From contig CAYZVO010000002.1 in the NCBI GenBank assembly GCA_964481655.1, forward strand, positions 21,746 through 85,745: 64,000 nt of DNA, written 5' to 3'. This document shows, in pieces, positions 5,362-38,920 of this stretch; position 1 is the first letter of the stretch, and every line of letters starts with the position of its first letter. The position numbers and the translations under genes are program-made. The notes beneath the pieces are model-generated. The model did not search any database and was not told the DNA's origin. It worked only from the letters and a program-made list of their open reading frames with translations. This stretch comes from an uncultured Enterobacterales bacterium. Its GTDB lineage: Bacteria > Myxococcota_A > UBA796 > JAFGLY01.

Positions 5362-7395
5362 ATGAAGCGTGGCATCGGCATCCTCTGTATCCTTCAGGGC
5401 GCGGTCTACGTGGCCCTGGCCGTGTTCCTGGGCCCCCGCTGGCTGCCCCTGTACGGGGTGCTGGGCGTGGCCGCGGCGCTGCAGCTCGGCGCGGGCGCCA
5501 TGGTGCTGTTTGGCCGGCCAGCGGCCCCCTGGGTGCGCTACGCGGCCATCGGATCCCTGGTGGCGGTGACCATCGTGGTCGGGCTCTACCTGCAGGCCGG
5601 GTCCCACGCGATCCTGCACTTCGCCAAGGTGGGGGCCGGCATGGGCTGGGCCGTCGTCGGGGGTGTGGTGGCGGCGCTGCCCTGGCTCTTCTTCGTGCCT
5701 GTCTGGCAACTGGTGGAGGTGGGCCTGGGGCGACGATGGGGGGCGGCCAGCGCAGTAAGCCTGCTGGTCGCCCTGGTCCTGCCCACCGCGGTCCACATGG
5801 GCCACCAGGCTCCCATCGAACGCTACCCCGCCCATGACGGCGCCGCGGCGGCGGCGTGGCTGCACGCCCAGTGGCGGGGTGAACCTGCCACGGCGCCGAG
5901 CGGCGAGGGTCCAGCGCTGCTGGTCGTCTCGGTGGTGCAGGAGAGCCGCATCCTGGACAAACAGGTGCTCGAGGGGGACAGCCTGTCGTCGGCCCTCGAG
6001 AGCTGGCGCGTACCCAGCCTGCTCCCCGAGGCTGCGCTGTACGTCGATGTGGCCACGGCCGAGCACCGCCTCGGCACCCCCTGGATCTCCGCCTCGGGGG
6101 TCGCTCTGCTGCCCCTGGGGGAGCACGGGATCCGGGCCAAGGCTCGCACCGTCGGTACCCTCGAGCTGTGGCGCTCCAAGGCCGTTCGCCGCGCGGAGCT
6201 CACCCCAGAGCTGCGGGTCGGGGCCATCGATCTGCGCAAGGTGCCCGGCGGCGACGCCATCAGCGCGGTGCGCTTCTCCAGCTGGCTGGCGGGAGCCGAC
6301 GGCGTGATCGCGGTCCAGCGCACCTGGGCCGCCCCCCCGGAGCTCAGCGCCGACGCGGTGCTCGAGGCCGCGGTGGCGGGGGCCGAGATGGTCGTGCGCA
6401 ACCAGACCCCCGACGGCCGCTTCGCCTACATCGTCAAGGGGCCCAGCGGCGATCTGGGCAAGGGCTACAACTACCCGCGGCACGCGGGCACCGCCTGGTA
6501 CCTGGCCCGGGCCGCCAGCCGCACCGGGGACCCCGAGCTCGCCGCCGCCGCGCGGCTGTCCATCGACCACCTGGGGGAGCGCACCTTCGAGACCACCGAA
6601 GGCCGCGCCTACATCCTCGATCCCGCGCGCACCGACGGAAAGTCCTGGGTGGGCACCACCTCCCTGGCGCTGCTGGCGGCGCTGGAGCTGGACTACCGCC
6701 CGGACCTGCAGGCCTCCTGGAGCGCTCAGGTGCTGTCGGCGGTGAACGACGAGGGTGTCGTGGTGGCCAACTTCGACATCGACAGCGCCAGCTGGCCAGT
6801 CCAGAAGCGCATCTCCTACGCCCAGGGCCAGGGGACCCTCGCGGTGGCGGCGGCTGCGCGGGCGGGGCTGCCGGGGGCTCAGGACGCCCTCGAGCGCATC
6901 GGCGAAGGCTGGGAGGGCCACTATTGGCCGGTGCCGGCGGGCCGCATGTTCACCCTGGGTGAGCACTGGTCCTGCTCGGCGGCCCTGGTGGCCACCGAGG
7001 CCCTGGGGCGCCCGGTGGGTTGGAACATCTGCGAGGGCTACCTGAACCGCGACCGCTTCGCGGTGCCCGACCACCACGGCCCCGTGCAGGCGGTGGCCGG
7101 TGCCGCCGGTGGTGGCGCCGAGGCCGTGATCGCCCGGGCCGAGTACGACCGCCGCCGGGGAGTCCGCGGGCGCTGGTTCGACGACTCGATGGCCTACGCC
7201 CGGCTCTTCCTGGCCTCGGCCTATCGCCCCGGCGACAGCCCCCTGCTGGGCCGGCCCGGCCGCCTCATCGGCGGCTTCCGGGACAACCCGGTGAAGCTCG
7301 ACGTGCAGGTGGACGCCGTGCAGCACATCGGCTGCGCGCTGTTCGGCATCGAGCGGCTGCTGCGGGACCAGGATCTGCCCGGTGGGAGCCCGTGA
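5362..7395 (+). CDS. Membrane protein with C-terminal alpha/alpha-barrel (six-hairpin glycosidase/terpene-cyclase-like) domain
   Basis: About 5 N-terminal TM segments. GRFAY...YNYPRHAGTAWYL and a terminal VDAVQH motif. High GC3 in this frame. Confidence 0.65.
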   Translation: MKRGIGILCILQGAVYVALAVFLGPRWLPLYGVLGVAAALQLGAGAMVLFGRPAAPWVRYAAIGSLVAVTIVVGLYLQAGSHAILHFAKVGAGMGWAVVGGVVAALPWLFFVPVWQLVEVGLGRRWGAASAVSLLVALVLPTAVHMGHQAPIERYPAHDGAAAAAWLHAQWRGEPATAPSGEGPALLVVSVVQESRILDKQVLEGDSLSSALESWRVPSLLPEAALYVDVATAEHRLGTPWISASGVALLPLGEHGIRAKARTVGTLELWRSKAVRRAELTPELRVGAIDLRKVPGGDAISAVRFSSWLAGADGVIAVQRTWAAPPELSADAVLEAAVAGAEMVVRNQTPDGRFAYIVKGPSGDLGKGYNYPRHAGTAWYLARAASRTGDPELAAAARLSIDHLGERTFETTEGRAYILDPARTDGKSWVGTTSLALLAALELDYRPDLQASWSAQVLSAVNDEGVVVANFDIDSASWPVQKRISYAQGQGTLAVAAAARAGLPGAQDALERIGEGWEGHYWPVPAGRMFTLGEHWSCSAALVATEALGRPVGWNICEGYLNRDRFAVPDHHGPVQAVAGAAGGGAEAVIARAEYDRRRGVRGRWFDDSMAYARLFLASAYRPGDSPLLGRPGRLIGGFRDNPVKLDVQVDAVQHIGCALFGIERLLRDQDLPGGSP

Positions 7396-7464
7396 TCCGG
7401 GTCGAATGAAGCGGCCGGCCTCGCCGTCGGTGGGGGGCCCCGCAGGGAGGGGCAGGAGGTGTGC

Positions 7465-8166
7465 ATGTGGCCGATCTTGATGACCGCCCTCCTGGCGTCG
7501 TCGCCCCAGGCCGGTGAGCCGGACCTGGTGCTGCATGGTCCCGCGCGGGACACGGAGATGACCCTCGAGAAGGGCGACTGGCTGCGCATCGACCTGACCC
7601 GGCCCAGCTGCGACTGGGAGCTGACCGAGCTGTCCGGAGGGCTGGCGTTGGTGGAGCAGGCCGGCAATGTCTTCGACCTCGAGGCCACGCGGGTGGGTGC
7701 CGCCAGCTTCACGATGCTGCTGCACTGCGGAGAGCGCACGCTCACCCCCCAGCCCTGGAGCGTCACGGTCCTGAGCGCCCGGCAGGCGCGGGGGTCGGGC
7801 GCCAGCATCCGGGCCACCGAGCTGATCGGGAACTGCTCGCCCACCATCGAGCAGCCGGATCGCGAGCGGCGCCCTGGGCGGCCCATCGCGGCCCAGGTCC
7901 ACCTGTTCCATGGCGAGGTCGGTGTGATGGAGGCGCCGGATCCTGCCCACCCGGCCTTGCTCGAGGTCCTCGAGCTGGACGGCACGGCGCCGGCGGAGCT
8001 CGAGCTCGAGCCGGGCCGCTACACCGCCCTGCTGGTGCGCGACGGCGCCATCATCGAGGACGGCATCCGGTCGTCGGGGGGTGTGCGGAGCTACCGCAGC
8101 TTCGTGGTCTTTCCCGGCCGCACCACCGAGGTGGTGGTCCGCGACAAGCGGCGTGCCGAGTACTGA
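7465..8166 (+). CDS. Hypothetical secreted protein
   Basis: GGAGG RBS 5 nt before ATG 7465, signal-peptide-like N-terminus, beta-rich sequence. Confidence 0.6.
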   Translation: MWPILMTALLASSPQAGEPDLVLHGPARDTEMTLEKGDWLRIDLTRPSCDWELTELSGGLALVEQAGNVFDLEATRVGAASFTMLLHCGERTLTPQPWSVTVLSARQARGSGASIRATELIGNCSPTIEQPDRERRPGRPIAAQVHLFHGEVGVMEAPDPAHPALLEVLELDGTAPAELELEPGRYTALLVRDGAIIEDGIRSSGGVRSYRSFVVFPGRTTEVVVRDKRRAEY

Positions 8167-8225
8167 ACGGCCGGCGCATTGCGCGCGCGCTAAGGGGCCC
8201 GGGCATCACCCTACGGAGTGCCGCC

Positions 8226-8909
8226 ATGCTCGTCCTGCTCTCGCTGCTCGCCTGCACGATGGACCCGATCGACACCGAAGGGCCCGGCCTTCAGCACACG
8301 GCGGAGCCAGAGCCCGTCCTGGCCACCCTCGACCTGCGCAACGCGGTCACCGGGGCCGGGGCCCAGGGGCTCGAGGTCGGCTTCCCCGATGGCGCGGTGA
8401 CCACGGGGGCCGATGGCCTGGCAGCCGGCGAGATCCCGGCCTGGGGATCGTTCGAGCTGACGGTCTCCGGCGAGGGCTACGTGGACCACGTGGTCTTCGG
8501 TCCGGCGGGTGATGAGGACTTCGGCTTCATCACCTACGTGGCGTCCCAGGCCATCACCACCCAGGTCCTCGCCATGCTCGGCAGCTCCTGGGACGCGGGC
8601 ACGGGCTTCGTGGTGGTGGGTGTGGACTACGCAGCGGACCTGTCCCCGGTGGAGGGCGCCACCGTCAGCCTCTCGGCCGACCACGGCGAGCCCTTCGTGT
8701 TCGCGGGTTCGTCACCGGCGCTGGGTTCCACCATTCCATCCGGCGGCATGGGCTTCGTGTCCTTCCCCAGCGTGGCCCTGGGGGACAGCGAGGTCACGGT
8801 GGAACCCCCCAACGGCGTCAGCTGCGTGGCCCACCCCAGCGGTGGGGTGATGCCCCCGGTGCCGGTGCTGGCCGACACGGTGACCGTGCTGGCGTTCCAC
8901 TGCGACTAG
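8226..8909 (+). CDS. Hypothetical lipoprotein with prealbumin/carboxypeptidase-regulatory-like beta-sandwich segments
   Basis: Lipobox LLAC, GGAG RBS. Segments resemble carboxypeptidase regulatory-like domains (VTTGADG, PVEGATVSL). Confidence 0.65.
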   Translation: MLVLLSLLACTMDPIDTEGPGLQHTAEPEPVLATLDLRNAVTGAGAQGLEVGFPDGAVTTGADGLAAGEIPAWGSFELTVSGEGYVDHVVFGPAGDEDFGFITYVASQAITTQVLAMLGSSWDAGTGFVVVGVDYAADLSPVEGATVSLSADHGEPFVFAGSSPALGSTIPSGGMGFVSFPSVALGDSEVTVEPPNGVSCVAHPSGGVMPPVPVLADTVTVLAFHCD

Positions 8910-8981
8910 CGTCGAATCTTCGACGATCGGTTCGACACTTCGACGGTTGAGCGCCCGAAACACGGCGTTCGACCGTCCGCG

Positions 8982-9008
8982 AGCCCCGGCACGGGGTTTG
9001 CTTCTGTT
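8982..9008 (+). terminator. Possible intrinsic terminator upstream of the transposase
   Basis: Stem AGCCCCG-GCA-CGGGGTT followed by a T-rich tail (TGCTTCTGTT). Confidence 0.35.
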
Positions 9009-9036
9009 GAGGGAGATCCCCCAAACGGAGGTCTCC

Positions 9037-9849
9037 ATGCAAGAGCTGGCTTGGCACATGATGCTTCGCCTCGACGACGATCGAGTCCTCGCACCCAGCG
9101 TGCACGACCGTCGGCTGCTCGCCCGCACGGTCTACCGCATCGCCGATGAGCGAGGGCTGCTGTGCTTCGGCGCGGCTGACACCCACCTGCACCTGGTGGT
9201 GCTCTGCTCGCGGGAGAATGCGGGGCGCCTGGCCCAGCAGCTGGGCGTGGCGCTGCGGGCCCAGCTGCACATCCCGGTACCCTTCGCGCCGGCCCGCATC
9301 GTGGAGGTGCGCGACCAGCACCACCTGCGCAATGTGTTCCACTACGTGCTCGGGCAGCGGGGGCGCCACGGGCTCCACAGCGATCCGTTCCTGGACGCCT
9401 CCAGCCTGCCGGAGCTGCTGGGCCTGCGCGTGCTTCGCACGGACAGCGGGGACCTGGTGCGGGAGCTGCTCCCGCGGGTCTCGCGGCGGGACCTGCTGCG
9501 GCACCTGTCGCTGGAAGCGCTCGAGCCCTGCTCGGCCCTGGTCGCGCCGCTGGACGCAGCGGCTGGTGCCGTCGGGCTCGGTAGCCTCGACCAGAGCCGG
9601 GAGTTGGGGCGTCTGGGGCGCGCGGCGCTGGTGCAGCTGGGCACGCCGCAGCTGGCCAGTGGAGCGTTGGCGCAGCTGATCGGCAGGTCCGAGCCCACGG
9701 TGCGGCGCCTGAGGCAGGTCGAGGTCCCGCCGCGACTGATGCGCGCGGTGCGGCTGCAGCTGGCGCTGCGACAGGACCTGCTCGGGGCGGACGGAGAGCC
9801 CGGCGCGCTCACGAACGAGTGGGGTGCTGGGCACCGCAGGGCTTCGTGA
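9037..9849 (+). CDS. REP-associated tyrosine transposase (RAYT)/IS200-like HUH Y1 nuclease with C-terminal HTH-like region
   Basis: GGAGG RBS before ATG 9037. N-terminal WHMMLR, HUH motif DTHLHLVV, and a catalytic-Tyr-like helix LRNVFHYVLGQ. The C-terminal LAQLIGRSEPTVRRL is HTH-like. Confidence 0.7.
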   Translation: MQELAWHMMLRLDDDRVLAPSVHDRRLLARTVYRIADERGLLCFGAADTHLHLVVLCSRENAGRLAQQLGVALRAQLHIPVPFAPARIVEVRDQHHLRNVFHYVLGQRGRHGLHSDPFLDASSLPELLGLRVLRTDSGDLVRELLPRVSRRDLLRHLSLEALEPCSALVAPLDAAAGAVGLGSLDQSRELGRLGRAALVQLGTPQLASGALAQLIGRSEPTVRRLRQVEVPPRLMRAVRLQLALRQDLLGADGEPGALTNEWGAGHRRAS

Positions 9850-9978
9850 GCGTTGGGGTGGTCGGGTGCGCTCACGGACACCCGGGGTGTCTGTCACTCC
9901 GCGGGTTGGCGAGCGCTGGCGTGGTCCGTCGCGCTCACCAGTTGCGGGAGTGTCCGACACCCCCCCGGTTCGTGAGCG
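9805..9978. repeat. Three REP-like imperfect palindromes (~48 bp) at an exact 63-bp period
   Basis: Units start at 9805, 9868 and 9931. Shared pattern GCGCTCAC-N8-GG(G/A)GTG-N5-CAC-N11-G(T/C)GAGCG. Confidence 0.85.
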
Positions 9979-9995
9979 AGCCGGGACCGGCGGCG

Positions 9996-11624
9996 CTACT
10001 CGTCCACGACCCGATAGCGGAGCAGCCCTTCCCAGGTGCCCACCACCAGCCAGTGGCCGTCGGGGCTGGCGGCGATGGACTCCGACAGGCGCGCCGGGCC
10101 GCCCAGGCCGCCCAGCTCCTGGCCGTCCAGATCGATCACCAGCGGGCCGCGGTGGGTGGTGACCAGGAGCCGGTCGGCGCCCACCGCCGCCACGGCCAGG
10201 CCGATGCCGGGACCCTTGGCGCGCTCTCGTCCCTTGTCGTCGAGGATCACGGTGCCGCCGTCGGCCAGCGCGATGTGCCCGCCGGGGAGCCAGGCCGCGT
10301 CGAGGGCCAGGTCCGGGTAGGGTCCCAGGCGCCGCTCGGCGCCAGAGCTGGCGTCCAGGGTCGCGATCCGTTCGTAGCCCCACAGCAGCAGCAGCTCGTC
10401 ACCGCTGGGCGCGGAGGCCAGCAGGGTGACCTGGTCGAGCATGTCGCCATCATGCCCGGCGCTGCGGCGCTTGACCCCGCGGGAGGCGTCGAAGACCCAC
10501 AGGCCCTGTCGGGCGCCGACCGCGAACCAGCGGCCGTCGGCGGTGAACGCGCAGTGGTGCACGGACCAGCGGGTGTCCTCACCGAGGATGGCCCGCGGTT
10601 CGCCGTCGAGGGCCCACAGCTGGTAGGCGCCGCCGTCGGTGTCCAGGCCGACGGAACCCCAGACCACCCCCAGCCGGGAGCCGTCGGGGGCGACGCAGAT
10701 CTCGTCGATCTCGCGTCCCTGGCGGTGTCCTCCAAGCTCGACACGGCCGCGCTCGAGGCCGTCGTCGAGCCCGAACCAGACGAGGACGTCATCTTCGGCG
10801 GCGAAGAGGGTGTCGCCGGCGATGGCCAGGGCCTCGTTGGGGGCCTCGATGGGATCGCCGTGGGCGGCTACCCGATCCCAGGTCGGCCAGGGCTCGGGTG
10901 GGGGAGGGGGCTCGTAGCTGGCGATGGTGCCGCCGCCTCCGCCGCTCCGCATCCCACCGCCGCCGGTCGCGAGCCCCGCGTCGGGGCTGTTCAGGGCGAT
11001 CACGTCTTCGAAGGGGTCTTCGTAGCCCATCAGCTCGTCGCTGAACCCGCCGTAGGCCGCGGTGGACCCTGCGATGGCCTGCAGCAGCCCTGACTCGGCG
11101 ATGATGGCGTCCGACCGTGCGGTGAGGGCGGAGCCCTGCTCGAGCTTCAGGGTCAGCGCGCCGGCCATCAGGCAGCGGTCGATCCCATGGAACACCAGGT
11201 GCTGGTCCGCCCGCTGTTCGACCTGCAGGCGCGTCGCGCCGCAGCGGGCGCTCAGGGGGCCCTCGACCCCGGTGACCGGGGCGGTGCTGGTGCACTCGAT
11301 GTTGGCCTCGAGGCTCCAGCAGTCCCGATCTGCGGTGGCGTCGAGGCGGCAGTCGACATCGGGCCTCGCGGTGCACGAGGACACGCTGAATCCTCCGCCG
11401 AGCCCACCCACGGGCCACTGCAGCTGGTGCAGCCCAGCCTTGTCGAGCTCGAGGGCCATCCAGCCCTCGCCGTCGCCGCCCGCCAGGGCCACCTCCCGGG
11501 CGTCGCCCAGGGCCAGCTCGATGGTCTGCTGGGCGTAGGCGCCGTCGTTGGTCTTCACAGCGTCGATCAGGGCGGGCTCGCGGGCCGGGGCCGCGGCGAC
11601 CAGCAGCGCGAGCGCCAGCATCAC
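9996..11624 (-). CDS. Secreted protein with C-terminal WD40/YVTN-like beta-propeller
   Basis: Signal peptide, Gly-rich linker, repeated blades (ICVAPDGSRL, CAFTADGRWF, LASAPSGDEL, IAASPDGHWL). GTGA overlap with the MMPL stop. Confidence 0.75.
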   Translation of the reverse strand: MMLALALLVAAAPAREPALIDAVKTNDGAYAQQTIELALGDAREVALAGGDGEGWMALELDKAGLHQLQWPVGGLGGGFSVSSCTARPDVDCRLDATADRDCWSLEANIECTSTAPVTGVEGPLSARCGATRLQVEQRADQHLVFHGIDRCLMAGALTLKLEQGSALTARSDAIIAESGLLQAIAGSTAAYGGFSDELMGYEDPFEDVIALNSPDAGLATGGGGMRSGGGGGTIASYEPPPPPEPWPTWDRVAAHGDPIEAPNEALAIAGDTLFAAEDDVLVWFGLDDGLERGRVELGGHRQGREIDEICVAPDGSRLGVVWGSVGLDTDGGAYQLWALDGEPRAILGEDTRWSVHHCAFTADGRWFAVGARQGLWVFDASRGVKRRSAGHDGDMLDQVTLLASAPSGDELLLLWGYERIATLDASSGAERRLGPYPDLALDAAWLPGGHIALADGGTVILDDKGRERAKGPGIGLAVAAVGADRLLVTTHRGPLVIDLDGQELGGLGGPARLSESIAASPDGHWLVVGTWEGLLRYRVVDE

Positions 11625-21150: not shown

Positions 21151-22320
21151 GTGAGCCACGACCGCTTCTACGACGACCTGCCTCCCCGACGCTCCTTCCT
21201 GGAGGCGCTCGAGGACCGTGGGTTCCGGGCGGTGCCCGATAACTGGACGGTGTTCGTCGCCGACATCCGCGGCTCCCGTGAGGCCATGGCCGCGGGGCGC
21301 TACAAGGACGTCAACACCGTCGGTGTGGCGGTGATCGCGGCCGCGCGCAACGCGGTGCCCGGGCAGGAGCTGCCCTTCGTCTTCGGTGGTGATGGCGCCA
21401 CGCTGCTGGCGCCGCCGTCGGCCTGCGAAGCGGTGGAACTCGCCCTGGACGCCGTGCGCACCCTCGCGCGGGAGCGCTTCGGGCTCGAGCTGCGGGTCGG
21501 CGCGGTGCTGGTCGCCGAGCTGTACGCCGACGGCCTGGCGGTCGAGGTGGCCAAGCACGAGCTGGCGGCCGGTCGCTGCGTCGCGGTGTTCCGCGGCGGC
21601 GGGGTGAGCGCCGCGGACGCCCGCGTGAAGCGGCACTACGACCGCTACGAGCTCCCCCGGGAAGAACGCGCGGAGCCCGACCTGTCAGGCCTGTCCTGCC
21701 GCTGGCAGCCGGTCCCGTCCGCGCAGGGTTGCATCCTGACGCTGCTGGTCCACGCGCGGGTGGATGACGCCACCGCCGTGTACCGCGGGTTCCTCGGCTG
21801 GCTGGATGACAGCCTGCCCGGCGGGCTCGCTGCCGCCAACCCCGTGGGGATCGATGGCCTGGCCTACCGCGACCTCCGCACCAACCTGGCGGATGAGCGT
21901 CGCTACCACCTGCGCGGGTGGAGCGTGTCGTTTCTGTGGAGGGCGCTCGAGATGTTCATCGCGGGCCTGATCTTCCGTTGGCGGATCCCGACCCCCTTCG
22001 TCGCGACCGCCCGCTACGAGGCCGCCATCGCCGGCCACTCCGACTATCGCAAGCTCGACGACATCCTGCGCATGGTGATCGACTGCAGCCCCGATCAGGC
22101 CGAGGCCATCCAGAGCTGGCTCGATCGCGGGGTGGAGGCCGGGGCGTTGCACTACGGGCTCCACCGGTCGGACGCGGCGTTGATGACCTGCCTGGTCGGC
22201 TCGACCCGGGACGGGGGCCACATCCACTTCATCGATGGCGGGGACGGTGGTTACGCGGTGGCCGCGACGGCCCTGGGGCAGCAGCGCGACGCGGCGCGGA
22301 CGCCCACCCCGGGGGGCTGA
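21151..22320 (+). CDS. DUF3095 family protein
   Basis: FYDDLP, VPDNWTVFVADIRGS...GRYKDVN, FVFGGDGAT, DLSGLSCRW, DYRKLDDILRMVID and HIHFIDGGDGGYA. Confidence 0.85.
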   Translation: MSHDRFYDDLPPRRSFLEALEDRGFRAVPDNWTVFVADIRGSREAMAAGRYKDVNTVGVAVIAAARNAVPGQELPFVFGGDGATLLAPPSACEAVELALDAVRTLARERFGLELRVGAVLVAELYADGLAVEVAKHELAAGRCVAVFRGGGVSAADARVKRHYDRYELPREERAEPDLSGLSCRWQPVPSAQGCILTLLVHARVDDATAVYRGFLGWLDDSLPGGLAAANPVGIDGLAYRDLRTNLADERRYHLRGWSVSFLWRALEMFIAGLIFRWRIPTPFVATARYEAAIAGHSDYRKLDDILRMVIDCSPDQAEAIQSWLDRGVEAGALHYGLHRSDAALMTCLVGSTRDGGHIHFIDGGDGGYAVAATALGQQRDAARTPTPGG

Positions 22321-25597: not shown

Positions 25598-26412
25598 CAG
25601 TCCAGATCCGCGCAGCAGCGGAAGCCGGTGCTGTAGTCGTGGTAGCTGCGGGCGTGGGCGGTGGTCACGTACAGGCAGCCCGATCCATTGATGGCGGCGT
25701 CGGCGTAGAAGCCGCCGCGGAAGGTGCCGTCGGCGTCGTTCACCCACTCGTGCAGGTTGCCGTGCAGGTCGAAGACCCCCCAGGCGCTCTCGCAGGCCTC
25801 GAAGAAGCCCCCGGTGCTGACGGTGCCGGCCTGCTGGTTGATGCCCGGGTCGTTCATGTGCTCGCTGTCCCAGATGCCGTGGGAGGTGCCGAAGTAGTCC
25901 ACCAGGGGGTGGGAGCCGGCGTAGTCGTCGTTGCAGGCGCCGTCGATGTGGCTGTCGCCGTAGGGGTAGCTGTGGCCCTGGGGCCCCTGGCATGCGGCCA
26001 GCCACTCGTCGCTGGTGCACAGGCGCTTGCCGGCGCGGTGGCAGGCGGTGTCGGCCTGATCGCCGCTGATGTAGCCCTGGGGTACGGCGCCGGAGCGCAC
26101 CGCGGCGCGGACGTCCTCGTCGCTGTCCAGCTGCTCATAGGGCGAACGGGCGACCCAGGAGCCCGCGCTGTGCTCCTCGAGGAACGCCTCGTAGCGGTCG
26201 ATGCAGAACCTGCTCTGCACGGGAGCCATCCCGGTCGGGCAGGGCCCGGGGTCGGTGTCGGCGTCGCTGTCGGCGTCGGCGTCCGTGTCGGCGTCGGCGT
26301 CGGTGTCCGCGTCCGAGTCGCCCGGCCTGCCGCTGTCGTCCCGGCCCGGCCAGTCCGGATCGTGGCGCTCGGGGGCCTGGGTGCAGGCGATGAGCAGGAG
26401 CAAGGTGAGCAA
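25597..26412 (-). CDS. SUMF1/EgtB/PvdO (formylglycine-generating enzyme-like) lipoprotein
   Basis: Lipobox LIAC, DADT linker, FCIDRYE, GKRLCTSDEWLAACQG, YPYG, GVFDLHGNLHEW and STGFRCC. Confidence 0.85.
   Translation of the reverse strand: MLTLLLLIACTQAPERHDPDWPGRDDSGRPGDSDADTDADADTDADADSDADTDPGPCPTGMAPVQSRFCIDRYEAFLEEHSAGSWVARSPYEQLDSDEDVRAAVRSGAVPQGYISGDQADTACHRAGKRLCTSDEWLAACQGPQGHSYPYGDSHIDGACNDDYAGSHPLVDYFGTSHGIWDSEHMNDPGINQQAGTVSTGGFFEACESAWGVFDLHGNLHEWVNDADGTFRGGFYADAAINGSGCLYVTTAHARSYHDYSTGFRCCADLD
26251..26319. repeat. 6-bp-period tandem repeat encoding an acidic D-[ATS] linker
   Basis: (GTC-NNN)n encoding DSDADTDADADTDADADSDADTD. Confidence 0.85.

Positions 26413-36613: not shown

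Positions 36614-38920
<2,307 letters not shown>

Follow-up and report, generated by a model that had tools for sequence, protein, structure and literature searches.

Known Y1-HUH systems and overview of the locus

Proteins that match the Pfam family PF01797 (Y1_Tnp) have been divided into three classes (Quentin et al. 2018, PMC6006769). Class 1 corresponds to IS200 and has a Y-x3-Q motif, and class 2 corresponds to TnpA_REP and has a Y-x3-NP motif. Class 2 includes subclass 2.1 (TIRYT), whose members carry C-terminal helix-turn-helix (HTH) or DnaA-like domains and lack repetitive extragenic palindromes (REPs). Class 3 (HuH-Y) is a small class from Planctomycetes, Acidobacteria and Proteobacteria, with a Y motif whose last residue is Q and atypical hairpins whose foot is CnGA (PMC6006769). 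A REP-associated tyrosine transposase (RAYT, or TnpA_REP), together with its REPs in bacterial interspersed mosaic elements (BIMEs), is termed a REPtron (PMC6006769; PMC3333891; PMC3479197; PMC5581495). The locus described here lies in a 64,000-nucleotide (nt) stretch of DNA, referred to below as the window, which covers positions 21,746 to 85,745 of contig CAYZVO010000002.1 (assembly GCA_964481655.1) and has a G+C content of 71.8%. It comprises a gene for a 270-residue protein with a predicted Y1-HUH nuclease core and a C-terminal HTH domain, and an array of three long hairpins that begins within the 3' end of the gene. The locus is probably a REPtron-like system, in which a hitherto unclassified class of Y1-HUH nuclease with a C-terminal HTH is accompanied by a cognate head-to-tail array of 48-nt hairpins. 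The protein family combines a class 1-type Y motif, what appears to be an architecture of the subclass 2.1 type and the REPtron-like behaviour of class 2 or class 3.

Protein motifs and predicted fold

The gene (protein P0001) occupies positions 9037–9849 of the + strand. The longest open reading frame (ORF) call begins at TTG 8947 (8947–9849, 300 residues), and its extra 30 codons span the promoter region. The start was placed at ATG 9037 because the homologue alignment shows an equivalent methionine at the start of all homologues and the sequence GGAGG is present at 9027–9031. The AlphaFold2 model, computed with the family alignment as input, has a predicted local distance difference test (pLDDT) score of 92.3, and its N-terminal core follows the order β-α-β-β-α-β-α. 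A Foldseek search of the PDB with this model returned as top match the TnpA_REP of E. coli in complex with a REP hairpin (4er8_A), with an E value of 6.8e-4, a template modelling (TM) score of 0.56 and a root mean square deviation of 2.9 Å over 117 columns. The next matches were more than 25 TnpA chains of IS608, ISDra2 and IS200, all with a probability of 1.00.

The HUH motif, H50-L51-H52 (9184–9192, + strand), is located on strand 50–55 of the model. In an alignment of 55 family sequences the segment D48-x-H50-L-H52 is conserved, with H52 invariant and H50 conserved in at least 90%. The putative catalytic tyrosine helix, Y103-V-L-G-Q107-R-G-R-H111-G (9343–9371, + strand), has the family consensus Y-x-L-x-Q-R-N-R-H-G; Y103 lies within helix 94–105, downstream of strand 87–91 in the model. 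Both Y103 and Q107 are conserved in at least 90% of the aligned sequences and H111-G is invariant. Further conservation is seen in the SLPELLG segment and in the C-terminal helical region, whereas the ~14 residues at the C-terminus show no conservation and have pLDDT values below 50. The active site is argued to be live because HUH, Y and Q remain at least 90% conserved across the 55 members, which are as little as 35% identical to the window protein.

Alignment of the family with the enterobacterial RayT alignment by hhalign superposes HLH on the HMH of E. coli RayT and Y103-x3-Q107...H111-G on Y115-x3-N119...H123-G124, with a non-significant E value of 0.18. The window protein has no Pfam match at E ≤ 1, PF01797 included, and no match in NCBIfam, PADLOC or PHROGs; sequence and profile searches of the PDB gave weak HTH matches only. 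A Pfam scan of the 55 family members matched 37 families, and Y1_Tnp was not among the 25 listed. The 68 close relatives are all annotated 'hypothetical' and lack Pfam domains. What ties the family to Y1 enzymes is its predicted structure and its conserved motifs; the sequence similarity is not significant.

The HTH domain spans residues ~188–249 (9598–9783, + strand). The Pfam family HTH_23 was matched by 22 of the 55 family members (best E value 6.9e-5), a few more match other HTH families, and this region has pLDDT values above 90 in both models. When the C-terminal domain was modelled alone, the pLDDT was 68, with confidence only in the HTH part. Foldseek returned nothing significant for this domain; the best geometry matches were the DNA-binding domain of DnaA and the DeoR HTH.

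An earlier note on this DNA, made from the sequence alone, had proposed a RAYT-like HUH/Y1 transposase that bears an HTH. The HTH is borne out by the family matches, and the Y1-HUH fold, the best match to TnpA_REP and the conserved motifs agree with the first part of the proposal. A match of the protein to the Y1_Tnp profile, which the note had suggested looking for, was not obtained. The protein was filed as not a strict RAYT because it lacks Y-x3-NP, a PF01797 match and, in its repeats, a GT[AG]G foot.

The hairpin array

The sequence GCGCTCAC occurs on the + strand at 9805, 9868 and 9931, at a spacing of exactly 63 bp. Tandem Repeats Finder (TRF) reports a 63-bp period across 9843–9978, which with a score of 137 is the top-scoring repeat in the window. 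The three units, at 9805–9852, 9868–9916 and 9931–9978, are 48–49-nt imperfect palindromes delimited by palindrome search, folding and a covariance model, with arms 9806–9827/9831–9852, 9868–9889/9895–9916 and 9926–9954/9956–9984 that show 77%, 73% and 72% complementarity, respectively. They are separated by linker 1, TTGGGGTGGTCGGGT (9853–9867), and linker 2, TGGCGTGGTCCGTC (9917–9930), which are direct repeats of one another; related G-rich linkers occur in the loci L089–L091 described below. The units are only ~71% alike by TRF, and the skeleton CAC-N11-GTG-N5-CAC-N11-GTG is invariant. The outer stem pattern CGCTCAC-N20-45-GTGAGCG is found twice in the window versus 0.07 expected occurrences. 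In a search of the whole 64 kb with a covariance model of the unit, these three sites alone were found, at 55–62 bits; the next best site scores 15.5 bits (E value 0.13).

Unit 1 contains the last 14 sense codons of the gene and its TGA (9847–9849), which falls in the right arm. This overlap looks incidental, because the residues that it encodes are the unconserved, disordered ones at the C-terminus. At its other end the array stops 17 nt from the stop codon (9996–9998) of a convergent gene of 541/542 residues with a faint WD40 match. Neither a GTAG foot nor a CnGA foot is present in the window units, which start with GCGCTCAC and are preceded by GGC, GGT or GTC. The earlier note had described three ~48-nt units 63 bp apart, a stop codon in the right arm of unit 1 and unit ends without the classical GTAG, and each of these descriptions holds. 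No long hairpin was found upstream of the window gene, no Rfam match between 8000 and 11000, and no T-tract or terminator-like site in the array. CRISPR-like and integron-like arrangements were also considered and rejected: the 14–15-nt linkers are themselves repeated, and neither cas genes nor intI occur nearby.

Folded as single-stranded DNA (ssDNA), unit 1 gives a long hairpin on either strand, with an energy of −18.0 kcal/mol and a z score of −3.45 on the + strand. For units 2 and 3 the − strand gives the better fold, with z scores of −2.24 and −2.94, respectively, because of A·C versus G·T positions; on the + strand the minimum free energy structure of unit 3 differs from the long hairpin. 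Since each unit is palindromic, the array has two alternative hairpin registers. In the second of these, within 9843–9978, the right arm of one unit pairs with the left arm of the next and the linker becomes the loop; the TRF consensus in this linker-as-loop register has an energy of −23.3 kcal/mol.

The earlier note had placed unit 3 closer to unit 2 in reverse complement, as in the alternation of BIMEs or of REP doublets (REPINs). This did not hold up. The direct and reverse-complement alignment scores of the unit pairs are 18 versus 20, 17 versus 17, and 14 versus 17, equal within noise, and both linkers are direct repeats, so the array is head-to-tail and a BIME-like alternating orientation was rejected. 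The note had also suggested that pairing is broadly kept while arm bases differ. Among 13 related units 69.9% of cells pair versus 32–48% in slid controls, and the palindrome is therefore real; covariation, on the other hand, is not above column shuffles, and the middle of the stem is paired in only about half of the 13 units.

Hairpin arrays at homologous loci

A scan of one genome per GTDB species yielded 80 homologous loci (L001–L080). Head-to-tail arrays with periods of 40–100 bp, identified by TRF with folding ignored, lie next to the gene at about 40 of 81 loci; the earlier note had suggested checking whether homologues carry similar 3' arrays. Their periods are 51–53, 62–65 or 73–74 bp, with a few others between 40 and 98 bp. 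The arrays are positioned up to ~170 nt upstream of the gene (351 nt in one locus) or up to ~100 nt downstream of it. About half are upstream, and in the clade of the window protein they lie upstream of the promoter. Arrays on both sides were seen in L020, L059 and L077, one side being the usual arrangement. Of 44 gene-adjacent arrays 26 fold with z below −2, and 19 with z below −3. The density of long hairpins is 1.31 per kb beside the gene and 0.24 per kb in the rest of the loci, a 5.4-fold difference.

The hairpin sequences vary by paralogue, and related hairpins and periods go with related proteins. Many of the hairpins share a G/C-rich foot followed by CA[ACG][AG]A, for example GCCACAA, GCGCAAG, GCCAAAG and CTCACGAA. 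Cognate arrays without a family gene beside them were found in L003, L010, L020 and L036, either 1–9 kb from the gene or on other contigs, and these orphan arrays occur in either orientation.

Hairpins of the window type are present on three contigs of metagenome Ga0307987 (L089, L090 and L091). A three-unit array is located on the 203-kb contig of L090. In L089 a solitary unit (8490–8580) stands between two direct repeats, GGTATGGGGGCC, in a linker-hairpin-linker arrangement which suggests that the mobile or duplicating unit includes the linker. Among the 80 homologue loci the covariance model detected no copy other than those it had been trained on and an unrelated perfect hairpin in L087. 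The latter (165–217; 42.7 bits with model R1) is a single, nearly perfect hairpin with a CGCTCAC...GTGAGCG foot on a 1.3-kb contig of an unrelated metagenome, Ga0302321, which contains no family gene. With a single array in 64 kb, the copy number of the window hairpin appears to be modest or strongly uneven.

Orthologous sites and duplication of the module

Three related genomes share a site adjoining an MMPL-family gene, with 85% protein identity. The order in the window is a 677-residue gene, a 233-residue gene, a 227-residue gene, the Y1 gene, the array, the WD40-like gene and the MMPL gene. In L001 a 677-residue gene is followed by the Y1 gene, which is 71% identical, a three-unit 63-bp array directly after the stop codon of the Y1 gene, and the MMPL gene. 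The hairpin foot in L001 differs, TCACCACGAAC...GTTCGTGGTGA, and includes a compensatory change from U-A to C-G at pair 7–47. In L091 (Ga0307987_1000026) the order is a 227-residue gene, a three-unit array, a WD40 remnant and the MMPL gene. The array of L091 (470–700) is of the window hairpin type and directly follows the 227-residue gene, and ~900 bp corresponding to promoter and Y1 gene are absent. The gene and the array are therefore separable.

Homology over the module was found between paralogous loci within single metagenome-assembled genomes (MAGs). In one MAG, 9754–10750 of L036 and 9751–10753 of L061 are 85.6% identical at the nucleotide level over ~1000 nt, exactly the array, the promoter and the gene. 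In another pair from one MAG, L035 (9737–10749) and L038 (9725–10749), the nucleotide identity is 77% over the same three elements. Outside them neither pair shows homology, which implies that array, promoter and gene have on at least some occasions been copied together.

Comparison with described Y1 systems

The family resembles RAYT/TnpA_REP in its Y1-HUH fold, with TnpA_REP as the top structural match, and in having a gene flanked by cognate palindromic repeats, which are found at other sites too; every paralogue has a repeat family of its own. As with RAYTs, the copies are divergent, not identical, and the chromosomal site is syntenic across three genomes, with no plasmid copies found. The family differs from RAYTs in having Y-x3-Q where these have Y-x3-NP, and in lacking both a PF01797 match and a GT[AG]G foot. 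Its hairpins are 45–50 nt long, run head-to-tail at a fixed phase of 51–74 bp and usually occupy one side of the gene, whereas RAYT repeats form inverted doublets (REPIN/BIME). Moreover, the protein has an extra helical and HTH domain of ~150 residues, the repeat density appears much lower, and a MAG holds up to 6 paralogues, compared with the 1.3–1.8 per genome reported for RAYTs (PMC5581495).

The order of a Y1 core followed by an HTH may be shared with subclass 2.1 (TIRYT), in which the C-terminal domain is Bac_DnaA_C, HTH_23 or HTH_28; HTH_23 is also the commonest Pfam match of the family, and the match of the family to DnaA-domain geometry is non-significant. Subclass 2.1 is retrieved with PF01797, has Y-x3-NP and is reported to be flanked by terminal inverted repeats of the form GGGG[AT][CG]A[CG] and to lack REP-like hairpins (PMC6006769), whereas the family has hairpin arrays and a core that is not of the class 2 type and is undetectable by sequence. 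The likeness to class 3 lies in a Y motif that ends in Q, in the possibility of several related genes per genome and in behaviour intermediate between insertion sequences (ISs) and REPtrons. By its description, however, class 3 is defined from PF01797 and has a motif printed as Y-x4-Q and a CnGA foot (PMC6006769), none of which is found in the window, where the motif is Y-x3-Q. The TnpA proteins of IS200/IS605 elements (IS608, ISDra2) share with the family the fold and the HUH and Y-x3-Q signature and, by analogy, probably also the recognition of imperfect hairpins as ssDNA. Unlike in those elements, the gene is not enclosed by a left-end/right-end hairpin pair, there are neither identical copies nor a tnpB, and the protein has a large additional C-terminal domain.

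Putative promoter region

Five TTCGAC/GTCGAA hexamers precede the gene on the + strand, at 8911–8916, 8919–8924, 8931–8936, 8939–8944 and 8968–8973. Four of the five are within 34 bp, at centre-to-centre distances of 8–12 bp. Four to five hexamers are kept upstream of the closest homologues (L001–L003, L006–L009, L011, L012, L016, L018 and L027) versus about one expected per 176 nt, and they are candidate operator or upstream activating sites.

Sigma-54 promoters have −24/−12 elements with the consensus GG-N10-GC. A sequence that matches this consensus, GGCACGGGGTTTGC (GGCAC-N5-TTGC; 8988–9001, + strand), lies 36 nt before the ATG. At 12 of 78 loci the pattern GGCAY-N5-YTGS occurs in the 130 nt that precede the start codon, at nine of them 40–53 nt upstream of it; the background frequency is 0.0043 per 130 nt. 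A search of 8800–10100 gave no sigma-70-like promoter. Both the hexamers and the sigma-54-type element are conserved in the closest clade, and other clades have different upstream repeats. More speculatively, such clade-specific repeats would fit binding by the protein's own HTH.

Interpretation and alternative explanations

The reading of the locus as a REPtron-like system is carried by the fold and catalytic motifs, the family-wide association with arrays, the arrays without a gene, the synteny and the divergent paralogues. The suggestion in the earlier note of an undescribed RAYT/REP subfamily with cognate hairpins agrees with this evidence, in particular with the presence of the Y1-HUH fold in the protein and of hairpins beside its homologues, and nothing that the note had named as refuting it was observed. 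By analogy with TnpA_REP and IS608 TnpA, a mechanism may be proposed (PMC3479197, PMC3333891). The units, as computed, would fold into hairpins in single-stranded DNA, such as that at a replication fork, and the N-terminal domain would recognise the folded hairpin. Y103, with a metal bound by H50, H52 and Q107, would then cut at a fixed distance, form a 5'-phosphotyrosine link and rejoin the strand. An excised hairpin-plus-linker unit might be reinserted beside an existing one, giving phased arrays, and copies might be seeded elsewhere; growth of the array in this manner is speculative. So is the role of the HTH, which may bind duplex DNA, possibly the TTCGAC repeats before the gene's own sigma-54-type promoter. 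Each paralogue would have co-diverged with its own hairpin sequence, and inheritance of the module would be mostly vertical, with the array and gene occasionally duplicated as one unit.

Several observations weigh against this reading. Sequence-level significance for the Y1_Tnp link is lacking in Pfam, NCBIfam and hhalign alike. Neither the pattern count nor the covariance model revealed the hairpin outside the array in the 64 kb of the window. Among the homologous loci the arrays usually flank the gene on one side only, about half of the loci have no array detectable by TRF, and several gene-adjacent arrays fold no better than shuffles. Only about five cognate orphan arrays were found in ~1 Mb of flanks; the hairpin copy number may therefore be far below that of classical REPs, or the orphans may have been left behind by genes since lost.

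An autonomous IS200/IS605-like insertion sequence, in which array and gene move together as an element of ~1 kb and the hairpins form the transposon end, would account for the Y-x3-Q motif, which is the class 1 (IS200) and not the RAYT signature (PMC6006769), for the paralogous pairs homologous over exactly array, promoter and gene (L036/L061 and L035/L038), for the up to six copies per MAG and for the presence of the gene in the window and its absence from the syntenic site of L091. The paralogues, however, are at most 86% identical at the nucleotide level and near-identical copies were not found, and the module keeps one syntenic position even though the MMPL proteins beside it are only 85% identical. 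The window hairpins are one-sided, with none upstream; at L091 the array remains without the gene, which shows the two to be separable; orphan arrays exist; and carriage on plasmids or viruses was not found. An insertion sequence of this kind is accordingly considered unlikely. It is very improbable that the protein works chiefly as an HTH transcription factor, its HUH domain being a relic, and that the hairpins act as RNA, whether as terminators, 3' stabilisers or a small-RNA or guide array. The HTH domain, the promoter-proximal repeats suggestive of regulation, the good folding of unit 1 on the sense strand and the location of the array between convergent genes, a setting in which a bidirectional terminator could be of use, are all compatible with such a role. 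A relic domain is hard to reconcile with HUH, Y and Q residues conserved in at least 90% of 55 members down to 35% identity to the window protein, and a transcript-borne function with the arrays that lie upstream of the gene, about half of the total, and in the window's clade upstream of the promoter. Orphan arrays also occur in either orientation. A terminator was rejected on the lack of a T-tract, and the non-coding RNA or DNA guide array that the earlier note had offered as an alternative is disfavoured by the missing Rfam match and the upstream arrays. Coincidence, with a palindromic tandem repeat that arose by chance in a genome of 72% G+C beside an unrelated hypothetical gene, could draw on the ~71% likeness of the units and on covariation no higher than in shuffles. 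The frequency of the stem pattern (2 versus 0.07 expected) speaks against it, and it is effectively refuted by the recurrence of the association in about 40 independent loci with different sequences and by the orthologous arrays in L001 and L091.

A further-reaching and doubtful version of the REPtron-like reading would make the family a fourth, unclassified Y1-HUH class (Y1-HTH, with more than 1000 clusters, mainly in Myxococcota) that is a domesticated, sigma-54-regulated ssDNA-processing module and not a selfish mobiliser of REPs. Each paralogue would maintain its phased array by excising and reinserting 51–74-nt hairpin-plus-linker units, and the arrays would serve the cell, for example as structured sites in chromosome organisation or as a DNA switch triggered by stress or development. 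Since published surveys began from PF01797 (PMC6006769) or from known RAYT/IS200 similarity (PMC5581495), a family of more than 1000 clusters at 50% identity which PF01797 cannot detect was probably missed by them. The idea of a domesticated transposase paired with a genomic repeat is extended here to Myxococcota, and an unusual repeat geometry is added to it, with long hairpins in phased head-to-tail arrays and each paralogue co-evolving with its own hairpin. The module is compact (a 270-residue protein and a 48-nt substrate), which makes the reading of hairpins by Y1 enzymes and the growth of arrays testable in vitro, and the apparent sigma-54 control offers a lead on when such enzymes act.

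Family distribution and other repeats

A profile search of 1.84 billion cluster representatives, the family clusters being defined at 50% identity, returned 1268 at E ≤ 1e-3 and 627 at E ≤ 1e-30. The collections of plasmid and viral contigs contained no relatives. Nearly all of the 80 loci are in high-G+C MAGs labelled Myxococcota, Polyangia or 'Deltaproteobacteria'. Many of the loci are in MAGs that go under the names 'uncultured Enterobacterales', 'Rickettsiales' or 'Enterobacteriaceae'; since the family otherwise comes from Myxococcota-type MAGs, these names seem to be artefacts of automatic labelling. Several MAGs carry 3–6 divergent paralogues.

Other tandem repeats were noted in the window and in one homologous locus. 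Next after the hairpin array in the TRF ranking of the window are hexamer/18-mer repeats, (CGGCGT)n and (TCGGTG)n, at 26247–26321 and 38742–38810, with ~11 copies each, which are probably in-frame coding repeats. In L029 a very long run of 69-bp tandem repeats (6827–9280) is located 5–8 kb from the family gene; its blocks have 4–7.6 copies with 69–84% matches, and it may be a repetitive coding region.

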